Source: Deltaproteobacteria bacterium RIFCSPHIGHO2_02_FULL_40_28 (GTDB lineage Bacteria > UBA10199 > 2-12-FULL-40-28). Taken from it: a stretch of 64,000 nucleotides of DNA. The stretch lies in NCBI GenBank assembly GCA_001798135.1, contig MGRJ01000030.1, positions 321 through 64,320 of the forward strand, read 5' to 3'. The notes under the pieces are model-generated. The model saw only the letters and a program-made list of their open reading frames with translations. It was not told the origin of the DNA and ran no database searches. The position numbers and the translations under genes were made by a program. This document shows positions 14,455 to 60,252 of the stretch, one piece after another (within the stretch, counting starts at the first letter, position 1; every line of letters starts with the position of its first letter).

Positions 14455-14585
14455 GGGCTTGTTGAAAAATGTAGTTTTCCACTAATTCTGTCATTCCCGC
14501 GGAGGCGGGAATCCAGTCTTTTCAATAAGTTCTGGATCCCTGCCTTCGCAGGGATGACAGAGGAATGACATTCTTCAACAGACCC
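14455..14585. mobile_element. 131-bp MITE, copy 1 (TIRs, internal REP doublet, TTAAT TSD)
   Basis: Ends GGGCTTGTTGAAAAATGT / ACATTCTTCAACAGACCC; TTAAT on both sides; exact reverse complement of 57971..58101. Confidence 0.9.
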
Positions 14586-19487: not shown

Positions 19488-21620
19488 ATGCGAGTTACAC
19501 AATTCAACATCATTTTGCTCAGTTTTTTAACTTTCATATCTATAGGATTTATTCAGTGTGGAGACTCTGCAGAAGATGGAGACTCAGAGACAGCTGTTCT
19601 TACCATTACAGGAAATTTAATGGCTCCACAAGCTGCAACAGAAAGTAGCTCTGTTTCTGCTCTTATTTCCACAGCAACAGTAGATGCAGCAGTAGCTGAA
19701 GATGAAACTGATGCTTTGGATAATCTACTCACAGCCACAGGTGAAGCTGAATGTAGTGTAGAATTATACACCATGGAAGGGCTTTTAGTTTGTAGTACAA
19801 CAACTGGTATAGCTGGAGAATATGTTTGTCCCATTTCCGATTTAAACGATATTCGTCCTACAGACGTTACAGATCCAACGGCTTCTTTTAGACCTCAACT
19901 AGTAGCAAGCATTGATTGTGGTGTAAAACATTATGAAACCTTCATTGGGGGTTCCGTCGACCCTGCTGGAGACTTAACAGCAGCCCTACAAGATAATGAA
20001 GTGACTGTAAAAACAACTCTGGCCATGCAAACCATGATGAGCCCAACTCCTATTGGTTTTACAAATTGGGGAATTGATTTTTCGGAAGTAATTCCCAACC
20101 CAGGGCAACGCTATCTGACTATTTTAGGTTTCTTTAAAGGTGGATCTTTAAACGCTGAAAACGAGTCTTTAGGCAAACAATTTGGGATTATGAATGCTCT
20201 CTTTACCAGTTTCTATGTTGGCCCTGACAAAGGAGACTATAGTGCGTTGGGCTTTGGCGACCCCTATGCAATGATAAGAGCTATGCTGCAAGGAGAACTG
20301 CCCAGTGACGTTGTGACACGCATGACTGGATTTCTCGGAGACAACATCAGTGGTTTTGATACTTCTATAATACACTCTACCTATTCGAGCGCTGCAAGTA
20401 ATCTGGCTTCAACCAGAGACCTTGCATACACCAACTTCATTGATGCCGGCTTTGCTACTGATGATATGCCCTCAGCAGAATTTTATGCATTAGGACGAAC
20501 TTTTACAAAAATGTCTGCAGATACAGCTATATCGGGGATGAGAGAGGGCGGTAGTACTACTTTTGAATTTATACATAACCTATACCGTACAGCTGCAGAC
20601 AAAGCTGCAACAATAGGTGCAGACGAACCAGTTAGATTTGATCAAGATATGGTATCAGGGCTTGTAGCGGGCTATGGAAGCAATCTTACGAGCCCCATGG
20701 CTAATAACCGGAAAGCTTTTCTAGAAACCATGTATAATAGTGCTAGTAACATTTCATGTAGTGGATTTACAAAATGTAGAAATCTGGGAGCAGCTTTCAA
20801 AGATGTGTATAACAGCCAAGGACTTGATTATTGCTCAACAGAGGCTTGCTATGAAGGTGTAGGCGCTTATGTCAAATCAACATCAACAGCAGGAACCGAC
20901 AATATTACGGGTTATTTTCCAGCAGACTCTAACTACTTAGAAAGTGGTGCCTTTACAAGTTGTGTTATGGCTCAAATAAGTGCAGGTCAACCAGCCATCA
21001 GTTGTATGGGATGGCTAAGTGGCTCGCAACAAAACCAATTGAGTACCTTTGTAGGTGGTGGTTCTGGCAATCCACTGTTAAAAGCAGATGGCCTATCTTG
21101 TACACTCGCTACCGAATGTCTCTCCAATACCTGCAGTGCAGGACTTTGTGGCGGTGCACAACAACAACAACAACAACAACCTCCACCACCACAACTAAAA
21201 GCAGATGGACAGGTTTGTGCACAACCTTCAGAATGCCTCTCCAATACCTGCAATGCAGGACTTTGTGGCGGACAACCACCACCACCTCCTCCACAAAGTA
21301 GCGTTACACTTCAGAACTGTGCGGGAGGATGCCAGGTTACCCTGTCTGGTAATGCTCCAGGTCCTGGTCAAACTCAGGGTTTTAATATCACCAATGCTGT
21401 AAGCTGTGCGGGATTACCTCAAAATGTTAACGTAACCTATGTGACTTCCCCACTTAAATACTCGGGAGCTAACAACCTGTTTGTAGCTAATTTTAGTGGT
21501 CCGCTCCAAAATCATCCCACTGATAACACACGCAAAATTCAACCGTGTAATGCTGTGCTCCAAGGACAGGGTTGTGGACAGTGCTCTATCAATGTTCCAG
21601 CACCTCCACCACCTCCATAA
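19488..21620 (+). CDS. Large hypothetical lipoprotein with Cys-rich tandem repeats and polyQ/polyP linkers
   Basis: Signal peptide with lipobox-like FIQC; repeated LKADGxxCxxxxECLSNTCxAGLCGG; Cys-rich C-terminus. Confidence 0.8.
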   Translation: MRVTQFNIILLSFLTFISIGFIQCGDSAEDGDSETAVLTITGNLMAPQAATESSSVSALISTATVDAAVAEDETDALDNLLTATGEAECSVELYTMEGLLVCSTTTGIAGEYVCPISDLNDIRPTDVTDPTASFRPQLVASIDCGVKHYETFIGGSVDPAGDLTAALQDNEVTVKTTLAMQTMMSPTPIGFTNWGIDFSEVIPNPGQRYLTILGFFKGGSLNAENESLGKQFGIMNALFTSFYVGPDKGDYSALGFGDPYAMIRAMLQGELPSDVVTRMTGFLGDNISGFDTSIIHSTYSSAASNLASTRDLAYTNFIDAGFATDDMPSAEFYALGRTFTKMSADTAISGMREGGSTTFEFIHNLYRTAADKAATIGADEPVRFDQDMVSGLVAGYGSNLTSPMANNRKAFLETMYNSASNISCSGFTKCRNLGAAFKDVYNSQGLDYCSTEACYEGVGAYVKSTSTAGTDNITGYFPADSNYLESGAFTSCVMAQISAGQPAISCMGWLSGSQQNQLSTFVGGGSGNPLLKADGLSCTLATECLSNTCSAGLCGGAQQQQQQQPPPPQLKADGQVCAQPSECLSNTCNAGLCGGQPPPPPPQSSVTLQNCAGGCQVTLSGNAPGPGQTQGFNITNAVSCAGLPQNVNVTYVTSPLKYSGANNLFVANFSGPLQNHPTDNTRKIQPCNAVLQGQGCGQCSINVPAPPPPP
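21078..21311 (+). repeat. 117-bp tandem intragenic repeat with (CAA)7 tract
   Basis: Units start at 21078 and 21195; CAA x7 at 21159..21179; right end approximate. Confidence 0.8.
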
Positions 21621-23963: not shown

Positions 23964-25121
23964 TTATTTCTTCATCGCACCAATCAAAATACGGGCCACT
24001 TCAGGACGCGAAAACTCAACAGGAGGTTCAATGCCTGCCACTAACATTTCACGAACTTTGGTTCCTGAAAGAGCAATGTGTTCTTCTTTAGAGTGAGGAC
24101 AAGTTTTAGCAGAAACCATGCCCTGACATTTTTTACAAAACATGGTGTGTTCAAAAAAGAAAGGCTCAATTCCAAGCTTGATTGGGTCAAAATTTGAAAA
24201 AATAAGCTGGGCATCGTAAGTGCCATAATAATTTCCCACACCTGCATGATCACGTCCTACAATAAAATGCGTGCACCCATAATTTTTTCGAACAAGCGCG
24301 TGAAAAATTGCTTCACGTGGACCTGCATAACGCATGGCTGCTGGAAAAGCTGATATCATCGTGCGCTTAGAAGGATAATAATTGGCAAGCAACACCTCAT
24401 AACATTTCATACGCACATCTACCGGCACATCATCTGACTTGGTAGCCCCCACTAAAGGATGAACAAGCAAACCATCCACTAATTCAAGAGCACATTTTTG
24501 GATGTACTCGTGAGCTCTATGGATGGGATTACGAGTTTGAAAACCCACAATGGTTTTCCATCCCTTTTCCTTAAAAATTTGCCTCAGTTCTTTGGGATCC
24601 TTTCGATAAGAAACAAAATCAGAATATTTTACACGATTCACCACACGCACGGGTCCTGCTAAATTAACATCCCCCTGGCTCATCATGGAGGCAACTCCTG
24701 GATGAGCCACCTCTGTTGTTTTATAAACTTCTTTGGCTTCTGTTTCTTTGTTGTAATCGTATTTTTCTTCTACCTTACAAAGCCCTAAAATAGTTCCATC
24801 TCCATCACAAAGACTTACCTCATCCCCTACTTTAACTTTATCCGCTATATCATTAGAAACAGAAAGAGTAATAGGCAAAGACCAGGGTAGCCCATTCGCT
24901 AAATGCATGGTTTTAACCACACTATTGTAATCTTTAGAGTTCATGAAACCTTTTAAAGGGCTAAGTGCCCCGCAGGCCATCATGTCTAAATCGGATAATT
25001 GTTTTTCATTTAAAACAACCTTGGTTAATCCTTTAGCCTTAGCTAAAAGTTCATCTCTTTCTTTTCCACTCACAACAAGATTAATAAGTTCTCCACCATG
25101 AGGTGCAATTTGATCCTGCAT
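23964..25121 (-). CDS. sat: Sulfate adenylyltransferase
   Basis: [45 protein letters not shown]. Confidence 0.97.
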
Positions 25122-25164
25122 ATTTCTCCTTTTATGGGGCTGCTGAAAAATGCCCCAAAAAATT

Positions 25165-25551
25165 TTAAATCCGATATACCTTCATTTCACAAACGAAGCG
25201 CATCCTTAACCCATCTAGCTCGGATCCTTCAAATAGTTTTTTAAAAAATCCCTTCTGCTTTTCTAGAAAAACAATAACAGCGCTCTCGCCTTCTTTACTT
25301 AAGTCTTCACAAGCTTTAAGATAATCTCCCATCATCAAGCGAGAATCATAACCTACCTGAAAAGTTCGGGCTTGTTTTTCAAAATCTTCCAGGTATTTTT
25401 TTCCATCAGATTCATCCTGATGAACCACATAGACAGCCCGAACTTTTTTGTGGGTTTCTTTGGCATGATGAAAGGCCCAATGCATGGCCTCTTGGGATTT
25501 ACGTTCTTTTGAAACAGCTAACACAACAACTTTTTCTTTAACTTCCTCCAT
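25165..25551 (-). CDS. Universal-stress-protein-like domain
   Basis: [26 protein letters not shown] pattern. Confidence 0.55.
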
Positions 25552-25827
25552 TCATCCCCCAGCAATGGCAGGAACAATACTTAATTCATCACCATCTTTC
25601 ACAGAAGTTTGCTCTCCTTTTAAGAAACGAATATCTTCATCGTTTACATAAAAATTAATAAAGCGACGAAGCTGTCCTTTTTCATCATAAAGGCGTTCTT
25701 TTAAACCCTTAAATTTGCCTTCTAAAGACGCTAAAACCTCAGCCACTGTTTTACCTGTTACCTCCACTTCTGACTGGTTTTGAGTTAAAGCCTGAAGAGG
25801 AGTGGGTATTCTTACTTTGATTGACAT
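25552..25827 (-). CDS. ThiS/MoaD/CysO-like ubiquitin-fold sulfur carrier
   Basis: VRIPTPL, FINFYVNDEDIRFL, C-terminal AIAGG. Confidence 0.92.
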   Translation of the reverse strand: MSIKVRIPTPLQALTQNQSEVEVTGKTVAEVLASLEGKFKGLKERLYDEKGQLRRFINFYVNDEDIRFLKGEQTSVKDGDELSIVPAIAGG

Positions 25828-25838
25828 ATGTTTCCTTT

Positions 25839-26306
25839 CTATAAAATTTTTTTCTCAATAAAATTTTTTTGATCACTATTCCACAAAAATTCTGATGCCT
25901 CTTTAACACGGCCATTATAAACTGAAACCACAATATAGGATAATTGTGGAAACAAAGGCTCTCCCCAGGGAGCTGCCATCCCCTTATCTTCATCAGAAAA
26001 ATAAACTCCATGCTCGGGATGAGAATGATAAATGGATAGAATTTCATGCCCTTTTTTCTTTGCTAATTCTTCTGCCTCTTGCATCTCTTTAGGATCAATG
26101 GAGTATGCTGTTTTAGCATCTCGCGTGTAACGTTTGGGATCCTGGGCATGCAGTTTATTTTGGATATTGCTACAGTTCCGTATAACCTGTGCACAACGTC
26201 TGCCTTCCTTAACAGAACCCAAGACAAAACCACAAGCTTCGTGGGGATAACCCTGGTGGCAGTATGCGAAAATTTCATCTAATAATTGTTGGGAAATAAT
26301 TAACAT
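25839..26306 (-). CDS. JAB/Mov34 metallopeptidase (Mec-like)
   Basis: YPHEACGF and YHSHP..S.ED JAMM motif. Confidence 0.9.
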   Translation of the reverse strand: MLIISQQLLDEIFAYCHQGYPHEACGFVLGSVKEGRRCAQVIRNCSNIQNKLHAQDPKRYTRDAKTAYSIDPKEMQEAEELAKKKGHEILSIYHSHPEHGVYFSDEDKGMAAPWGEPLFPQLSYIVVSVYNGRVKEASEFLWNSDQKNFIEKKIL

Positions 26307-26321
26307 ACTTACCAAGCAATG

Positions 26322-26430
26322 GTCATCCCTCCATCATTTGTCATCCCTGCGAAGGCAGGGATCCATCTTAAAATCCAAAAATGGATTCCCGCCGGAGTTT
26401 ACCCTCGCGAAGGCGGGGGCGGGAATGACA
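26322..26430. repeat. GTCAT/dRS3-like REP doublet
   Basis: GTCATCCCTGCGAAGGCAGGGATCCA...TGGATTCCCGCC...GGCGGGAATGAC. Confidence 0.85.
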
Positions 26431-26440
26431 GAGGGATACA

Positions 26441-27340
26441 TTACCACTTCATCCCTTCAAAATAACGATCTCCATGATCTGAAAAAACAGTTACCACAAC
26501 ACCTGCTTTAAGCCTTTTGGCTACTTCCATCGAAGCAACCATAGCGGCCCCAGAAGAATACCCCACAATCAGTCCCTCTTCTTTTCCTAATCTTTCAGCC
26601 ATATCATAAGCAGGCTCAGTTTCAATCCACATCACTTCATCTAAATTTTTTTCGTGATAAATGCCTGGAACAATGGAAGTAGGCATGTGCTTTAAACCCT
26701 CCAATCCATGCATGGCATGGGCGGGCTGGGCCCCAATACAAACAATGTGAGAATTATGTTCCTTTAATCTACGGGTAATTCCCATCACTGTTCCAGAAGT
26801 GCCCATGGTAGCCACAAAGTGGGTAATAGCCCCCTTGGTTTGCTGAAGGATTTCAACTCCCGTTGTTTCATAATGAGCTTCGGAATTATCGGGATTATTG
26901 TATTGATCGGGCATAAAGTATTTGCCCGGATTTTCTTGATAAATCTTGTGTGCAAGACGGATGGCGCCATCGGATCCTTCCATTTCGCTACTAAAAGTAA
27001 TGCTGGCTCCAAAGGTTTTAGCAATATCTTTGCGTTGTTGTGAAGCATTGGCCGGCATTACCAACTCTACTCTATACCCTAAAACAGCACCCACCATGGC
27101 ATAGGCTACTCCTGTGTTTCCAGAAGTGGGATCCATAATAATTTTATCTTGAGTTAATTTTTCTTGGGCAATTGCTTTTTTTATCATCCAGTAGGCAGGA
27201 CGATCTTTAACCGAACCTCCAGGATTAAAATATTCGAGTTTGGCGTACACAGACACTTGTTGAGAAAGCTCTTTGGTAACCTCACGAATTTTAACGAGGG
27301 GGGTATTTCCAATTTTTTCCAGAATCGAATTTAAAATCAT
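26441..27340 (-). CDS. cysM: PLP cysteine synthase, CysM-like
   Basis: NPGGSVKDR, TSGNTG, DQYNNP, GTSGT, DHGDRY. Confidence 0.88.
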   Translation of the reverse strand: MILNSILEKIGNTPLVKIREVTKELSQQVSVYAKLEYFNPGGSVKDRPAYWMIKKAIAQEKLTQDKIIMDPTSGNTGVAYAMVGAVLGYRVELVMPANASQQRKDIAKTFGASITFSSEMEGSDGAIRLAHKIYQENPGKYFMPDQYNNPDNSEAHYETTGVEILQQTKGAITHFVATMGTSGTVMGITRRLKEHNSHIVCIGAQPAHAMHGLEGLKHMPTSIVPGIYHEKNLDEVMWIETEPAYDMAERLGKEEGLIVGYSSGAAMVASMEVAKRLKAGVVVTVFSDHGDRYFEGMKW

Positions 27341-27369
27341 AACTTTAGATGAAACTGCGGGTGGATTAT

Positions 27370-27455
27370 GTCATCCCGGCATCATTTGTCATCCCTGCGA
27401 AGGCAGGGATCCATCTTTGAATTTAAGATAGATTCCCGCCTTCGCGGGAATGACA
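27370..27455. repeat. GTCAT/dRS3-like REP doublet
   Basis: Shares an identical 38-bp stretch (27380..27417) with 26332..26369. Confidence 0.85.
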
Positions 27456-27458
27456 GTT

Positions 27459-27710
27459 TTACCCCTCAATTACACTCATTTCGATAGGTTCCACTTTGAG
27501 TCCACGGCTTTGAAAAAATTTCATGGCTTGAGTTACCTTCTCATCCGGCCCTTCCAGCTCAACAGCCATTAAGCCAACCGTTTCATTAACCGAGGCCGAA
27601 CGAATGTTAAATTTTACTTTAAATTGATCATACATATCGCAAATAATGGCCTCTGTTACTTGTTTCTCCGGAAAAGTAAGATAAACTTTTCTTTTCACTA
27701 TTTTACTCAT
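27459..27710 (-). CDS. Stand-alone NIL-domain protein
   Basis: VYLTFPE..IICDMYDQFKVKFNIRSASV..GLMAVELEG pattern. Confidence 0.75.
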   Translation of the reverse strand: MSKIVKRKVYLTFPEKQVTEAIICDMYDQFKVKFNIRSASVNETVGLMAVELEGPDEKVTQAMKFFQSRGLKVEPIEMSVIEG

Positions 27711-27724
27711 GGTGTTTCCTTTCT

Positions 27725-28963
27725 TTAAGATTTTTTATTCGCTTCATACAATTCTTCAAATGCTTTTAAACTAGGTTGAATAATGGGCGGCTTATCTAGC
27801 TTATGAACTACAGCCTCTTGGGTTTTAAGACCATTCCCTGTAATGCAAATTACTAACGATTCATCTAACGGGATACGCCCATCCTTGATTAATTTTTGAG
27901 CACATCCCAAAGTAACCCCTCCGGCTGTTTCAGCAAACACACCTTCGGTTTCAGCTAACAATCGAATGGCATCAATAATTTCATCATCACTTACATCTTC
28001 ACTCCATCCCCCCGTTTGTTTAATAGCCTTGGCTGCATAATAACCATCAGCTGGATTTCCAATAGCTAAAGATTTGGCAATGGTATTGGGTTTAACGGGT
28101 TTAAAAAAATCCTGATTTTCTTTTACACAAGTAGAAATGGGGGCACACCCAGTAGCTTGAGCCCCATACATTTTTGTACTGGAAGAAGAAATAAATCCCA
28201 ATTGTTCTAATTCATAAAAAGATTTGTGAATTTTGGTTAACAGCGAACCACTGGCCATGGGCACAACGATATGTTGCGGAATTTTCCATCCTAGTTGTTC
28301 GGCAATTTCATAGCCCATGGATTTAGAACCCTCTGCATAAAAAGCTCTCATGTTGATATTGACAAAAGCCCAATTATATTTACCGGCAATTTCACTGCAC
28401 AAGCGATTTACTTCATCATAGGTGCCCTTAATTCCCACCAAATTAGTTCCATAAATCATGGTACCTAAAACTTTAGTGGCTTCTAAATCGTAGGGAATAA
28501 AAACAAAACTATGCAAATCAGCGGCGGCAGCCAAGGCTGCAACCGAATTAGCTAAATTGCCTGTAGATGCACAGGCCACTACCTTAAAACCAAACTCACG
28601 AGCTTTAGAGAGAGCCACCGAAACCACACGATCTTTAAAAGACAGAGTAGGATAATTAACAGCATCGTTTTTGATATAAAGCTCTTTGATTCCTAAAACT
28701 TTTGCTAAACGATCTGCTCTCCGAAGAGGAGTAAAGCCCACTTGACGTCCTACAGTTGGCTCACCATCAATGGGCAAAAGTTCTCGGTAACGCCACATAT
28801 TAGGTGCACGACTTTGAATTTTATTTTTGGTTAAATCCTTGCCAATTTTTTCATAATCATAAACAACCTCCAAGGGACCAAAACAAAGTTCGCACACATG
28901 GATGGGCGCCTTTTCTCTTTCTTTGCCACACTCACGACATTTTAAACCAGACACATACGACAT
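27725..28963 (-). CDS. thrC: Threonine-synthase-like PLP enzyme
   Basis: N-terminal CREC..CELC, PTLSFKDR, CASTGNLANS, SLAIGNP, ITGNGLK. Confidence 0.8.
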   Translation of the reverse strand: MSYVSGLKCRECGKEREKAPIHVCELCFGPLEVVYDYEKIGKDLTKNKIQSRAPNMWRYRELLPIDGEPTVGRQVGFTPLRRADRLAKVLGIKELYIKNDAVNYPTLSFKDRVVSVALSKAREFGFKVVACASTGNLANSVAALAAAADLHSFVFIPYDLEATKVLGTMIYGTNLVGIKGTYDEVNRLCSEIAGKYNWAFVNINMRAFYAEGSKSMGYEIAEQLGWKIPQHIVVPMASGSLLTKIHKSFYELEQLGFISSSSTKMYGAQATGCAPISTCVKENQDFFKPVKPNTIAKSLAIGNPADGYYAAKAIKQTGGWSEDVSDDEIIDAIRLLAETEGVFAETAGGVTLGCAQKLIKDGRIPLDESLVICITGNGLKTQEAVVHKLDKPPIIQPSLKAFEELYEANKKS

Positions 28964-28966
28964 AAC

Positions 28967-29884
28967 TTACTCCTTAAAATAACGCTCAATACTAAAATAA
29001 CGCTGACCTGCATCAGCTAAAAAAGTTAAAACTTTCTTTTTAGGGCCCAACTCCTTTGCAATTTTTAAAGCGGCATATACATTAGCCCCAGAAGAAATTC
29101 CTAGAAGCATTCCCTCTTCCTTGGCTAAACGCTTCGTCATTTGAAAAGCCTCAATATCATCTACCGTTATCACTCGATCAATCAAACTTTTATCCAGATT
29201 TTTAGGAATAAAACCCACTCCCAATTGTTGAATTTGATGAGAGCCAGAAATACCACCTGAAATAACCGCCGACTTTTTTGGTTCAACAGCTACAATGAGC
29301 GTGTTTTTATTTTTTTTCTTTAAAACACGCCCTACGCCCGTTAAACTTCCTCCCGTTCCCACGCCTAAAACCAGAGCATCAACCCCATGTGGAAAATCAT
29401 TTAAAATTTCAACCGCCGTGTTTTCAGCATGTGCCTTTGGATTAACGGGATTTTCAAACTGCTTTGGCGAATAAGAATCCGGGTTTTCTTGTAAAACCTT
29501 TGTTGCTCTTTTAATAGCTCCTTCTACCCCCTCACTTTGAGGGGTCAAAACCAACTTAGCTCCAAAACCATCAAACATTTTTCGACGCTCTAAACTGGCA
29601 TCCTCAGGCATAAAAAGCAGCAGCTTTAATTTTTTAACCGCACAAACCATGGCAAGAGCCACCCCTGTGTTTCCTGCAGTGGCATCTACAATCAGGGTAG
29701 AAGGTTTAATTTGTCCCCGAGCATAAGCATCTTCAATCATGGCAAGGGCAATACGATCTTTAACCGAATAACTTGGATTTCCAGCCTCATATTTTCCATA
29801 AATACTAGCCATAGCTGCCCCCCCCACCCGATTTAGTTTGATAATGGGAGTATTTCCAATGGCTTCTAAAATGGTGGCCTGCAT
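28967..29884 (-). CDS. cysK: Cysteine synthase A
   Basis: IGNTP, NPSYSVKDRIA, TAGNTG, GVGTGG, HQIQQLGVGFIP, GISSGA. Confidence 0.85.
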   Translation of the reverse strand: MQATILEAIGNTPIIKLNRVGGAAMASIYGKYEAGNPSYSVKDRIALAMIEDAYARGQIKPSTLIVDATAGNTGVALAMVCAVKKLKLLLFMPEDASLERRKMFDGFGAKLVLTPQSEGVEGAIKRATKVLQENPDSYSPKQFENPVNPKAHAENTAVEILNDFPHGVDALVLGVGTGGSLTGVGRVLKKKNKNTLIVAVEPKKSAVISGGISGSHQIQQLGVGFIPKNLDKSLIDRVITVDDIEAFQMTKRLAKEEGMLLGISSGANVYAALKIAKELGPKKKVLTFLADAGQRYFSIERYFKE

Positions 29885-33883: not shown

Positions 33884-33965
33884 ATCAATTGTCATTCCCG
33901 TGAAAACGGGAATCCATCTTTGAATTTTAAGATGGATCCCTGCCTTCGCAGGGATGACAATTGAT
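33884..33965. repeat. GTCAT/dRS3-like REP doublet
   Basis: ATCAATTGTCATTCCCG...GGGATGACAATTGAT long hairpin. Confidence 0.85.
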
Positions 33966-57826: not shown

Positions 57827-58119
57827 GATAATGACGAAACTGAACTCTGACAGAGTTGAAACTATTCTGTTCAATCTGATCAAGCGCTTCCAATAATCGA
57901 GCTCGTTCCTTTTTTGGTAAATCCTTCATGTAATCCAACACAGGAGATCTACCAGAAGCAATTGTATAAAGGGTCTGTTGAAGAATGTCATTCCTCTGTC
58001 ATCCCTGCGAAGGCAGGGATCCAGAACTTATTGAAAAGACTGGATTCCCGCCTCCGCGGGAATGACAGAATTAGTGGAAAACTACATTTTTCAACAAGCC
58101 CATAAAAAGTGATTTTCAT
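57768..58119 (-). pseudogene. Gp49/RelE-like toxin interrupted by a MITE and C-terminally deleted
   Basis: Removing the MITE and one TSD restores MKITFYTIASGRSPVLDYMKDLPKKERARLLEALDQIEQ... Confidence 0.8.
57971..58101. mobile_element. 131-bp MITE, copy 2 (ATAAA TSD)
   Basis: Exact reverse complement of 14455..14585; ATAAA on both sides. Confidence 0.9.
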
Positions 58120-59834: not shown

Positions 59835-60252
59835 GTCATCACGAGGAGGCCTATGGCCGACGTGGTGATCCAGGTTAAAGAGAGCCTGGATTGCTTTAGC
59901 CCCTACGTTGCCCCCCAACGGGGCCCCTTTGGGTTGGCGCAGTTCTCGCTCCCTCATGTCTACGATGTGGCACTGATATCAATTATTTTCCAATGGTTTG
60001 CAAGCGTGCCTGGCACCAAGATTGTAAGACTCTACCCCCTCCAACTCCCCCTTACAAAGGGGGAGAGTACAGATGGATCCCGGCCTTCGCCGGGATGACA
60101 AGAGCAGCATGGATGACAGAGTGGGGGAGACATTTTTCAACAATCCCTCAATGTAGGCGTAACATCAGCTTCATAGGGACTTTAATCCAGGTTTATTGGA
60201 TTTGAATGCTTTGCACACGTGCCTGGCACAAAGATTCGGAACCCGCCCCTAC
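59835..60252. repeat. Mosaic of REP-type families including GTGCCTGGCAC copies 8 (60006) and 9 (60219) and a MITE-end remnant
   Basis: GTCATCACGAGGAG..GTGATCCA..TGGATTGCT; CTCCCCCTT-ACA-AAGGGGGAG; GGATCCCGGCCTTCGCCGGGATGAC; ACATTTTTCAACAATCCC; GCCCCTAC. Confidence 0.8.

Follow-up and report, generated by a model that had tools for sequence, protein, structure and literature searches.

A cluster of eight co-directional genes (29884-23964, minus strand) in the genome of Deltaproteobacteria bacterium RIFCSPHIGHO2_02_FULL_40_28 is probably a sulfur-assimilation operon, organized around one CysO-type carrier protein that supplies both a cysteine and a homocysteine route. The cluster lies in a stretch of 64,000 nucleotides (nt) from contig MGRJ01000030.1, called here the window, whose numbering is used throughout. 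The source is a groundwater metagenome-assembled genome (MAG) with a completeness rating of 100%; its 31 contigs total 2.16 Mb. Gene families were assigned from Pfam and NCBIfam profile matches, which bear out each assignment in the cluster; contigs are labelled with C numbers, and related loci with L numbers. The open reading frames and profiles bear out the gene order given in the original prediction, which was made from the letters of the window: cysK, thrC-like, NIL, cysM, JAB, a carrier ending in Gly-Gly, USP and sat. The parts of the cluster, with protein lengths in amino acids (aa), are:

28967-29884, minus strand: cysK-type cysteine synthase, 305 aa, the first gene (TIGR01139, 388 bits; cut-off 351)
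27725-28963, minus strand: threonine synthase (ThrC) paralog of MetM type, 412 aa, with an N-terminal four-Cys ribbon (PALP domain; NF006050, 287 bits)
27459-27710, minus strand: stand-alone NIL-domain protein, 83 aa (PF09383, E = 2.7e-16)
27388-27454, unstranded: double hairpin resembling repetitive extragenic palindromes (REP-like), in the NIL-cysM gap (read from the sequence; repeated genome-wide)
26441-27340, minus strand: CysM-like cysteine synthase, 299 aa (TIGR01138, 362 bits, below the cut-off of 394)
26340-26420, unstranded: second REP-like hairpin element, in the cysM-JAB gap (read from the sequence; repeated genome-wide)
25839-26315, minus strand: JAMM/Prok-JAB metallopeptidase, Mec/HcyD-like, 158 aa (PF14464, E = 1.7e-19)
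25552-25827, minus strand: CysO-family beta-grasp sulfur carrier (ThiS/MoaD-like), 91 aa (PF02597, NF041918)
25165-25551, minus strand: USP-like protein, 128 aa (PF00582, E = 9.5e-6, a weak match to the N-terminal half only, residues 7-78)
23964-25121, minus strand: sulfate adenylyltransferase Sat, 385 aa (NF003166, 575 bits; PUA_2 and ATP-sulfurylase domains)

In the scheme that we propose, sulfate would be activated by Sat, encoded in the cluster, and CysC and CysH (contig C23), with a sulfite reductase of 760 aa (contig C27), would take the activated sulfate on to sulfide. A rhodanese-MoeB activating enzyme (E1; contig C9) would adenylate the C-terminal Gly-Gly of the carrier, leading to its thiocarboxylate. 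Two pyridoxal phosphate (PLP) enzymes would draw on this sulfur donor: the CysM-like enzyme would make carrier-cysteine, presumably from O-phosphoserine, since the genome has no serine acetyltransferase, and the ThrC paralog would make carrier-homocysteine from O-phosphohomoserine. The JAMM peptidase would hydrolyse both adducts, releasing cysteine and homocysteine, and MetH would then make methionine; free sulfide probably goes to CysK. The NIL protein would be an accessory and not a catalyst, a ligand-binding module like the C2 domain of MetN, probably dimeric, that reports methionine or homocysteine to the carrier/MetM step. Gene identities, the separation of clades, conserved linkage, carrier-NIL fusions, riboswitch linkage in relatives and the absence of alternative routes are in hand; every chemical step, that of the ThrC paralog included, is inferred from gene content.

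The homocysteine branch depends on the ThrC paralog, whose family is publicly annotated as threonine synthase. It scores 281 bits with TIGR00260, above the cut-off, while the best model, NF006050, gives the 287 bits listed, below its cut-off of 303. On these scores and annotations one could take it for a mere second threonine synthase, a reading that we find barely credible. The genome has its own canonical ThrC (350 aa) adjoining homoserine dehydrogenase in a hom-thrC pair on contig C15, and the paralog shares only 30% identity with it. In a maximum-likelihood tree, ThrC-like (n = 84) and canonical ThrC (n = 15) proteins form two clades with 100/100 support, separated by a long branch of about 4.8 substitutions per site; the phylogeny suggested alongside the original prediction thus sets the enzyme apart from housekeeping ThrC. 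Throughout the ThrC-like clade, cysteines C9, C12, C24 and C27 of the N-terminal ribbon are invariant; ThrC does not have them. SFKDR, the PLP lysine motif, is retained, while four invariant ThrC residues are systematically replaced (T88->L, S155->N, R160->Y, N191->L) and R206 is newly invariant. We take T88, S155, R160 and N191 to be phosphate-site residues of Thermus ThrC; a literature search found no confirmation of this. The association of the ThrC-like family with the carrier, NIL and the S-adenosylmethionine (SAM) riboswitch, described below, likewise points away from threonine synthesis. A PDB search with the paralog found no MetM-type structure; only canonical ThrCs match, over residues 58-398. 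The family keeps 60-80% identity across phyla and occurs in Nitrospirota, Zetaproteobacteria (including the cultured Mariprofundus micogutta), Omnitrophota, Thermodesulfobacteriota, Nitrospinota, Armatimonadota, Elusimicrobiota and others.

The linkage survey took in 73 related loci, drawn from over 10 phyla and each with at least 1.5 kb of downstream sequence; these were annotated with seed proteins, and neighbours were counted within 6 kb of the ThrC-like gene. The carrier gene is present in 70 of the 73 (96%), usually directly behind the ThrC-like gene, and often in loci that have no CysM at all. NIL follows at 81%, E1 at 63%, cysK at 41%, JAB at 36%, TusA at 33%, cysM at 30% and sulfite reductase (Sir) at 29%. 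One locus, L001, holds the following in a single array: ThrC-like, small Sir, TusA, carrier, NIL, CysM, JAB, ThiF, radical SAM protein, sulfate symporter, Usp, phosphoadenylylsulfate (PAPS) reductase and Sat. This pattern bears on an alternative in which the ThrC paralog combines free sulfide with O-phosphohomoserine and the carrier works for the CysM branch only, the shared operon reflecting common sulfur regulation. A complete Sat-CysC-CysH-Sir pathway would provide the sulfide, and in the window the carrier adjoins JAB and CysM and not the ThrC paralog. The carrier's near-constant company with the paralog in relatives, mostly as its next gene and often with no CysM, argues the other way, as does the listing of MetM in GapMind 2026 as dependent on the MetO thiocarboxylate; we regard the free-sulfide alternative as unlikely.

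Some loci of the survey deserve separate mention. (i) Between the E1 and PAPS reductase genes of L001 (15800-18966) comes a block encoding a radical SAM protein (about 400 aa), a Na/sulfate symporter and a USP, which recurs in L021, L027, L044 and L073; this radical SAM protein has no homolog in the genome of the window. (ii) In the Nitrospirota loci L065, L077, L081-L087, L089, L091-L093 and L099, canonical thrC is directly downstream of the ThrC-like, carrier and NIL genes, so that two enzymes competing for O-phosphohomoserine would be encoded in one locus. (iii) In an Elusimicrobiota MAG (L096:11253), a 360-aa ThiF match comes right after the ThrC-like gene and there is no separate carrier gene; it is possibly a carrier-E1 fusion.

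Regulation supplies evidence that is independent of annotation. Of the 17 loci tested, 8 carry a SAM-I riboswitch (RF00162, 62-88 bits) immediately ahead of the orthologous ThrC-like gene, which places the family in the methionine regulon. This also argues against the notion that the product is not proteinogenic homocysteine but a different thio-metabolite, for instance a cofactor or siderophore precursor derived from a thiocarboxylate, or cysteate. Siderophore pathways are indeed also served by ThiS/JAB/E1 clusters (PMC1779556), and cysteate synthase is among the ThrC homologs. Yet the cysteate synthase model TIGR03844 gives the paralog only 60 bits against a cut-off of 325, the family's spread and its identity across phyla are housekeeping-like, and the genome has MetH with no other route to homocysteine; we consider a different product very improbable.

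The genome-wide search for such a route was negative. MetH (1189 aa) and AhcY are encoded, and no MetB/Y/Z/C protein (PF01053) is, the best PF01053 match being a partial one of 28 bits in other aminotransferases; neither MetX nor MetA was found, and DUF39 (PF01837) has no match in the genome. A homocysteine route of the Wolinella type is thereby ruled out, as is the DUF39/NIL-ferredoxin route; the NIL protein, moreover, has no ferredoxin domain. Because all of these are missing while MetH and a separate hom-thrC pair are present, the ThrC paralog is the only candidate homocysteine synthase. The separate clade, the carrier linkage, the riboswitches of relatives, the lack of another route in a genome rated complete and the published MetM/MetO precedent thus support the earlier proposal that this enzyme makes homocysteine from O-phosphohomoserine with carrier thiocarboxylate, and we propose it as a carrier-thiocarboxylate-dependent homocysteine synthase of the MetM type.

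The original prediction had also remarked that the cluster contains no E1, adenylylsulfate (APS) kinase or reductase, or sulfite reductase, leaving open how the product of Sat reaches the carrier. None of these genes is on the operon's contig, and each was located on another. In the single E1 of the genome (contig C9:78383-79558, 391 aa; NF006444, 556 bits), an N-terminal rhodanese domain whose active-site loop reads CAGGNR precedes a MoeB/ThiF domain; the protein shares 56% identity with the ThiF encoded within the L001 cluster. The genes for APS kinase (cysC) and PAPS/APS reductase (cysH) are side by side on contig C23, adjoining ahcY. A 760-aa sirohaem reductase of the NirA/Sir family is encoded on contig C27; we read it as the assimilatory sulfite reductase because in Zetaproteobacteria its homologs are encoded within the equivalent cluster. 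From Sat through CysC, CysH and Sir to E1 the chain is unbroken, and at the gene level the path from Sat to the carrier is accounted for. In some relatives (e.g. L001) all the genes of this path are kept in one cluster.

The carrier ends in PAIAGG and is 46% identical over its full length to CysO of Mycobacterium tuberculosis (PDB 3dwg_C); superposition of a relative's carrier domain and CysO gives a template modelling (TM) score of 0.91. Searches of the genome with family hidden Markov models found the operon carrier as the sole member of its family and the operon JAB as the sole JAMM peptidase, and one carrier must therefore serve both PLP enzymes. The JAB translation shows the ExnHxHx7SxxD motif, and the motifs E..ACG and HSHPEHGVYFSDED are readable. 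As the carrier ends exactly at Gly-Gly and needs no processing, the role of JAB is presumably to free the amino acid from the carrier adduct. On the cysteine side, a family search found no serine acetyltransferase CysE in the genome. The only weak match is a PglD-like hexapeptide transferase within a sugar-biosynthesis cluster. O-acetylserine is therefore apparently not made, which would leave the two PLP cysteine synthases to work on something else, O-phosphoserine being the simplest choice. The best PDB relatives of CysK are O-acetylserine sulfhydrylase A (OASS-A) enzymes, and its substrate loop reads TAGNTG, compared with the TSGNTG usual in cysteine synthases.

The NIL protein is the least familiar part of the operon. 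A profile built from 39 NIL proteins of related loci matches nothing in the PDB but the MetN C2 domain (3dhx, 8e-10), and Foldseek aligns the NIL domain of a relative with 3tuz at a root-mean-square deviation of 0.9 A over 73 residues. The domain has a ferredoxin-like fold and an NI-x-x-A motif that includes a near-invariant Asn (N35 here, about 90% conserved), which aligns with the methionine-binding residue N295 of MetN; in MetN, the N295A replacement reduces L-methionine binding to undetectable levels (PMC6233128). In nine of the surveyed loci (12%), carrier and NIL are fused in one protein of 171-176 aa, in which PAIAGG is followed by 2-7 residues and then NIL. Such fusions make up at least 120 clusters in the protein database: all 120 listed of 4864 matches show the two-domain carrier-NIL architecture, and they are annotated as "MoaD family protein". 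The original prediction had a free NIL protein sensing methionine; with fusions this frequent, the bond between NIL and carrier is closer than it supposed. AlphaFold models both domains of a natural fusion confidently (pLDDT, the predicted local distance difference test, 92) and gives them no fixed interface (pTM, the predicted TM score, 0.54). Some loci with the ThrC-like gene and carrier (L042, L057, L060, L088) have no NIL; it is thus dispensable there, which speaks for a part that is accessory and not catalytic. That NIL might be a second sulfur carrier is ruled out by its C-terminus, which varies (E, EG, AG, SS) and lacks a conserved Gly-Gly, and by a fold other than the beta-grasp. Tandem or paired forms occur as well, namely a 164-aa NIL-NIL protein (L071:6212-6706) and two adjacent NIL genes beside the ThrC-like gene (L095:8183-8925); from these, NIL probably works as a dimer, which fits a MetN-C2-like module. 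We noted also PDB 1v8c, a 168-aa "MoaD related protein" of Thermus thermophilus, with an internal PPVAGG in its carrier domain and a second domain after it, a layout resembling the carrier-GG-NIL fusions.

What NIL does can be suggested only tentatively. On the strength of its likeness to MetN C2 it may be a putative sensor that binds methionine or homocysteine and reports to the carrier/MetM step, a suggestion that we put well below an even chance. More speculatively, and with low confidence, it may be a third subunit specific to the carrier-dependent homocysteine synthase, made in thousands of bacteria as a carrier-GG-NIL polyprotein that the JAMM peptidase would cut as ubiquitin precursors are cut; the freed NIL dimer would bind methionine or homocysteine and gate the use of thiocarboxylated carrier by the MetM-type enzyme. 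If this is true, such gating would amount to feedback at the protein level, in place of or in addition to the SAM riboswitch that this operon lacks. A doubtful though possible alternative, which concerns NIL only, makes it a structural adaptor or chaperone that docks the carrier on the ThrC paralog or shields the thiocarboxylate, and not a ligand sensor. The fusions imply a 1:1 stoichiometry, carrier and NIL genes abut or overlap in many loci, and NIL domains accompany the unrelated DUF39 homocysteine pathway too, as NIL-ferredoxin (PMC5764234). Set against an adaptor are the conservation of the Asn that aligns with MetN N295, the complete-looking loci without NIL, and the absence of a fixed carrier-NIL contact in the AlphaFold model. 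We found no description in the literature of the NIL partner or of its fusion to the carrier; the text of Hasebe et al. 2024 lay outside this search and may mention NIL.

Several points weigh against our reading of the operon as a dual route to cysteine and homocysteine. The organism is known as a groundwater MAG and the pathway is read from genes alone; with 2.16 Mb, the genome could belong to a partial auxotroph that has MetH for recycling only. The homoserine kinase needed to make O-phosphohomoserine is not securely identified. Canonical ThrB and HomK (TIGR02535) are absent from the genome, the only ThrB match being IspE in an ispE-prs-ctc-pth cluster, and tblastn found no shikimate-kinase-like paralog of the Desulfovibrio type in it. 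The only candidate found is an APH-family kinase of 318 aa (contig C15:245761-246627; L103:1501-2457), which scores 124 bits with thrB_alt (TIGR00938) against a cut-off of 256. This we do not take against the pathway, because thrB is an unresolved gap in 8% of prototrophs (GapMind 2026).

Further points concern the cysteine branch. The original prediction likened the carrier/CysM/JAB trio to CysO-CysM-Mec, and the gene order cysM, JAB, carrier is that of CysM-Mec-CysO. The comparison holds for the carrier with its JAB neighbour and is less sure for the CysM-like protein, which gives 231 bits with E. coli CysM (2bhs) versus 175 bits with M. tuberculosis CysM (3dwg_A) and has Lys217 at the position of E. 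coli CysM R210. Given this closeness to E. coli CysM and the Lys in place of R210, its use of O-phosphoserine is presumptive, and its proposed dependence on the carrier rests on gene context and not on orthology. The absence of CysE puts the substrate of CysK in doubt. No SAM riboswitch or other Rfam element has a match in the whole window; the riboswitch is a variable feature of the ThrC-paralog loci and not an essential one. The AlphaFold model of the fusion, with no fixed interface, and the loci without NIL also count here.

Both branches have counterparts among known systems. The CysO-CysM-Mec(+MoeZ) cysteine pathway of M. tuberculosis was reportedly described by Burns et al. 2005. Shared with it are the CysO-like carrier with an AGG end, the adjacent PLP cysteine synthase and JAMM peptidase and, as a further likeness, the apparent unavailability of O-acetylserine here, there being no CysE. 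Unlike that system, the operon adds CysK, a MetM-type enzyme, NIL, a USP-like protein and Sat, and its CysM-like enzyme scores higher with E. coli CysM.

For the homocysteine branch, the precedent is a MetM/MetO/Mec/MoeZ route from O-phosphohomoserine to homocysteine in Streptomyces albulus (Hasebe et al. 2024, Appl Environ Microbiol 90:e0124724, as related in PMC13759103 and PMC12172450); metM of S. albulus is under SAM-riboswitch control, according to PMC12172450. GapMind 2026 includes the MetM route and remarks that MetM is often misannotated as threonine synthase; it also assigns the MetM/MetO route to a member of Nitrospirota, the phylum of many of the related loci here. Going by those published descriptions, the two systems have in common a ThrC-homologous PLP enzyme distinct from housekeeping ThrC, a linked ubiquitin-like carrier, a JAMM hydrolase, a rhodanese-containing E1 and, in many orthologous loci, SAM-riboswitch control. 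By the same descriptions they differ in that here (i) one carrier apparently serves MetM-type and CysM-type enzymes alike, (ii) the operon includes NIL, which is not among the four components listed for Streptomyces, and (iii) the operon has no riboswitch, the rhodanese domain of the E1 is N-terminal and the E1 gene lies elsewhere in the genome.

Neighbourhoods of ThiS, JAB and E1 with cysteine synthase and sulfate-assimilation genes were described as class 4e by Iyer et al. 2006, with no mention of ThrC or NIL (PMC1779556). With these and with the HcyS/HcyD/HcyF/MetY system of Wolinella succinogenes, the operon shares a carrier thiocarboxylate as the proposed sulfur donor for homocysteine and a JAMM peptidase; like the class 4e neighbourhoods, relatives of the operon link Sat, PAPS reductase, sulfite reductase and SirA/TusA. 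Wolinella uses an O-acetylhomoserine sulfhydrylase of PF01053, whereas the present genome, without PF01053, MetX and MetA, appears to have a ThrC paralog in that role. The NIL protein in turn shares with MetN C2 of the E. coli MetNI importer its fold and the NI(R/I)xA motif, including the Asn equivalent to N295; it differs in being a free 83-aa protein, or in relatives one fused behind the carrier Gly-Gly, with no ABC ATPase attached.

Intergenic spacing across the operon is 0-43 nt, apart from two gaps of 118 and 125 nt, and both long gaps are occupied by REP-like copies. The pair of GC-rich hairpins, GTCATTCCCGCGAAGGCGGGAATC ... GGATCCCTGCCTTCGCAGGGATGAC, has about 70 copies of each across the genome, and further copies lie in the window at 14490-14558, 33891-33958, 57998-58066 and 60075-60099. 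A promoter-like site (27392-27365) overlaps the element of the NIL-cysM gap, and the hairpins within the operon could divide or stabilise the transcript. Only groundwater and soil DNA metagenomes were found among sequence runs containing this DNA, and no RNA run that would bear on co-transcription.

The USP-like gene has the same place before sat in locus L020, and USP genes also lie within the sulfate-uptake part of related clusters (e.g. L001). The gene after sat is cinA. Just upstream of the cluster on the opposite strand are gatB, mtnA (TIGR00512, 446 bits) and ilvE (TIGR01122, 425 bits), the last two being the methionine-salvage genes that the original prediction placed 1.5 kb away. Elsewhere in the window (19488-21620) is a gene for a secreted-looking protein of 710 aa, with poly-Q and poly-P runs and a Cys-rich motif (LKADG..C....ECLSNTC.AGLCGG) that occurs twice.

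Both the cysteine and the homocysteine route are thus already in the literature, and the operon unites two known systems; less familiar is the NIL protein, a regular companion of the carrier and often its fusion partner. The genome offers a clean case in which both sulfur amino acids apparently depend on one carrier and on O-phospho esters, with no O-acyl route. The enzyme is very common, and databases label it "threonine synthase" and its carrier "MoaD". Because of these labels, metabolic reconstructions would mistakenly score many uncultured phyla, among them Nitrospirota, Zetaproteobacteria, Omnitrophota, Thermodesulfobacteriota, Nitrospinota and others, as auxotrophs for methionine, and often for cysteine too. 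The finding should be useful for correcting annotation and auxotrophy predictions across such phyla, and the recurrent NIL partner with its carrier fusion suggests an undescribed regulatory or adaptor layer in a pathway characterised only in 2024.

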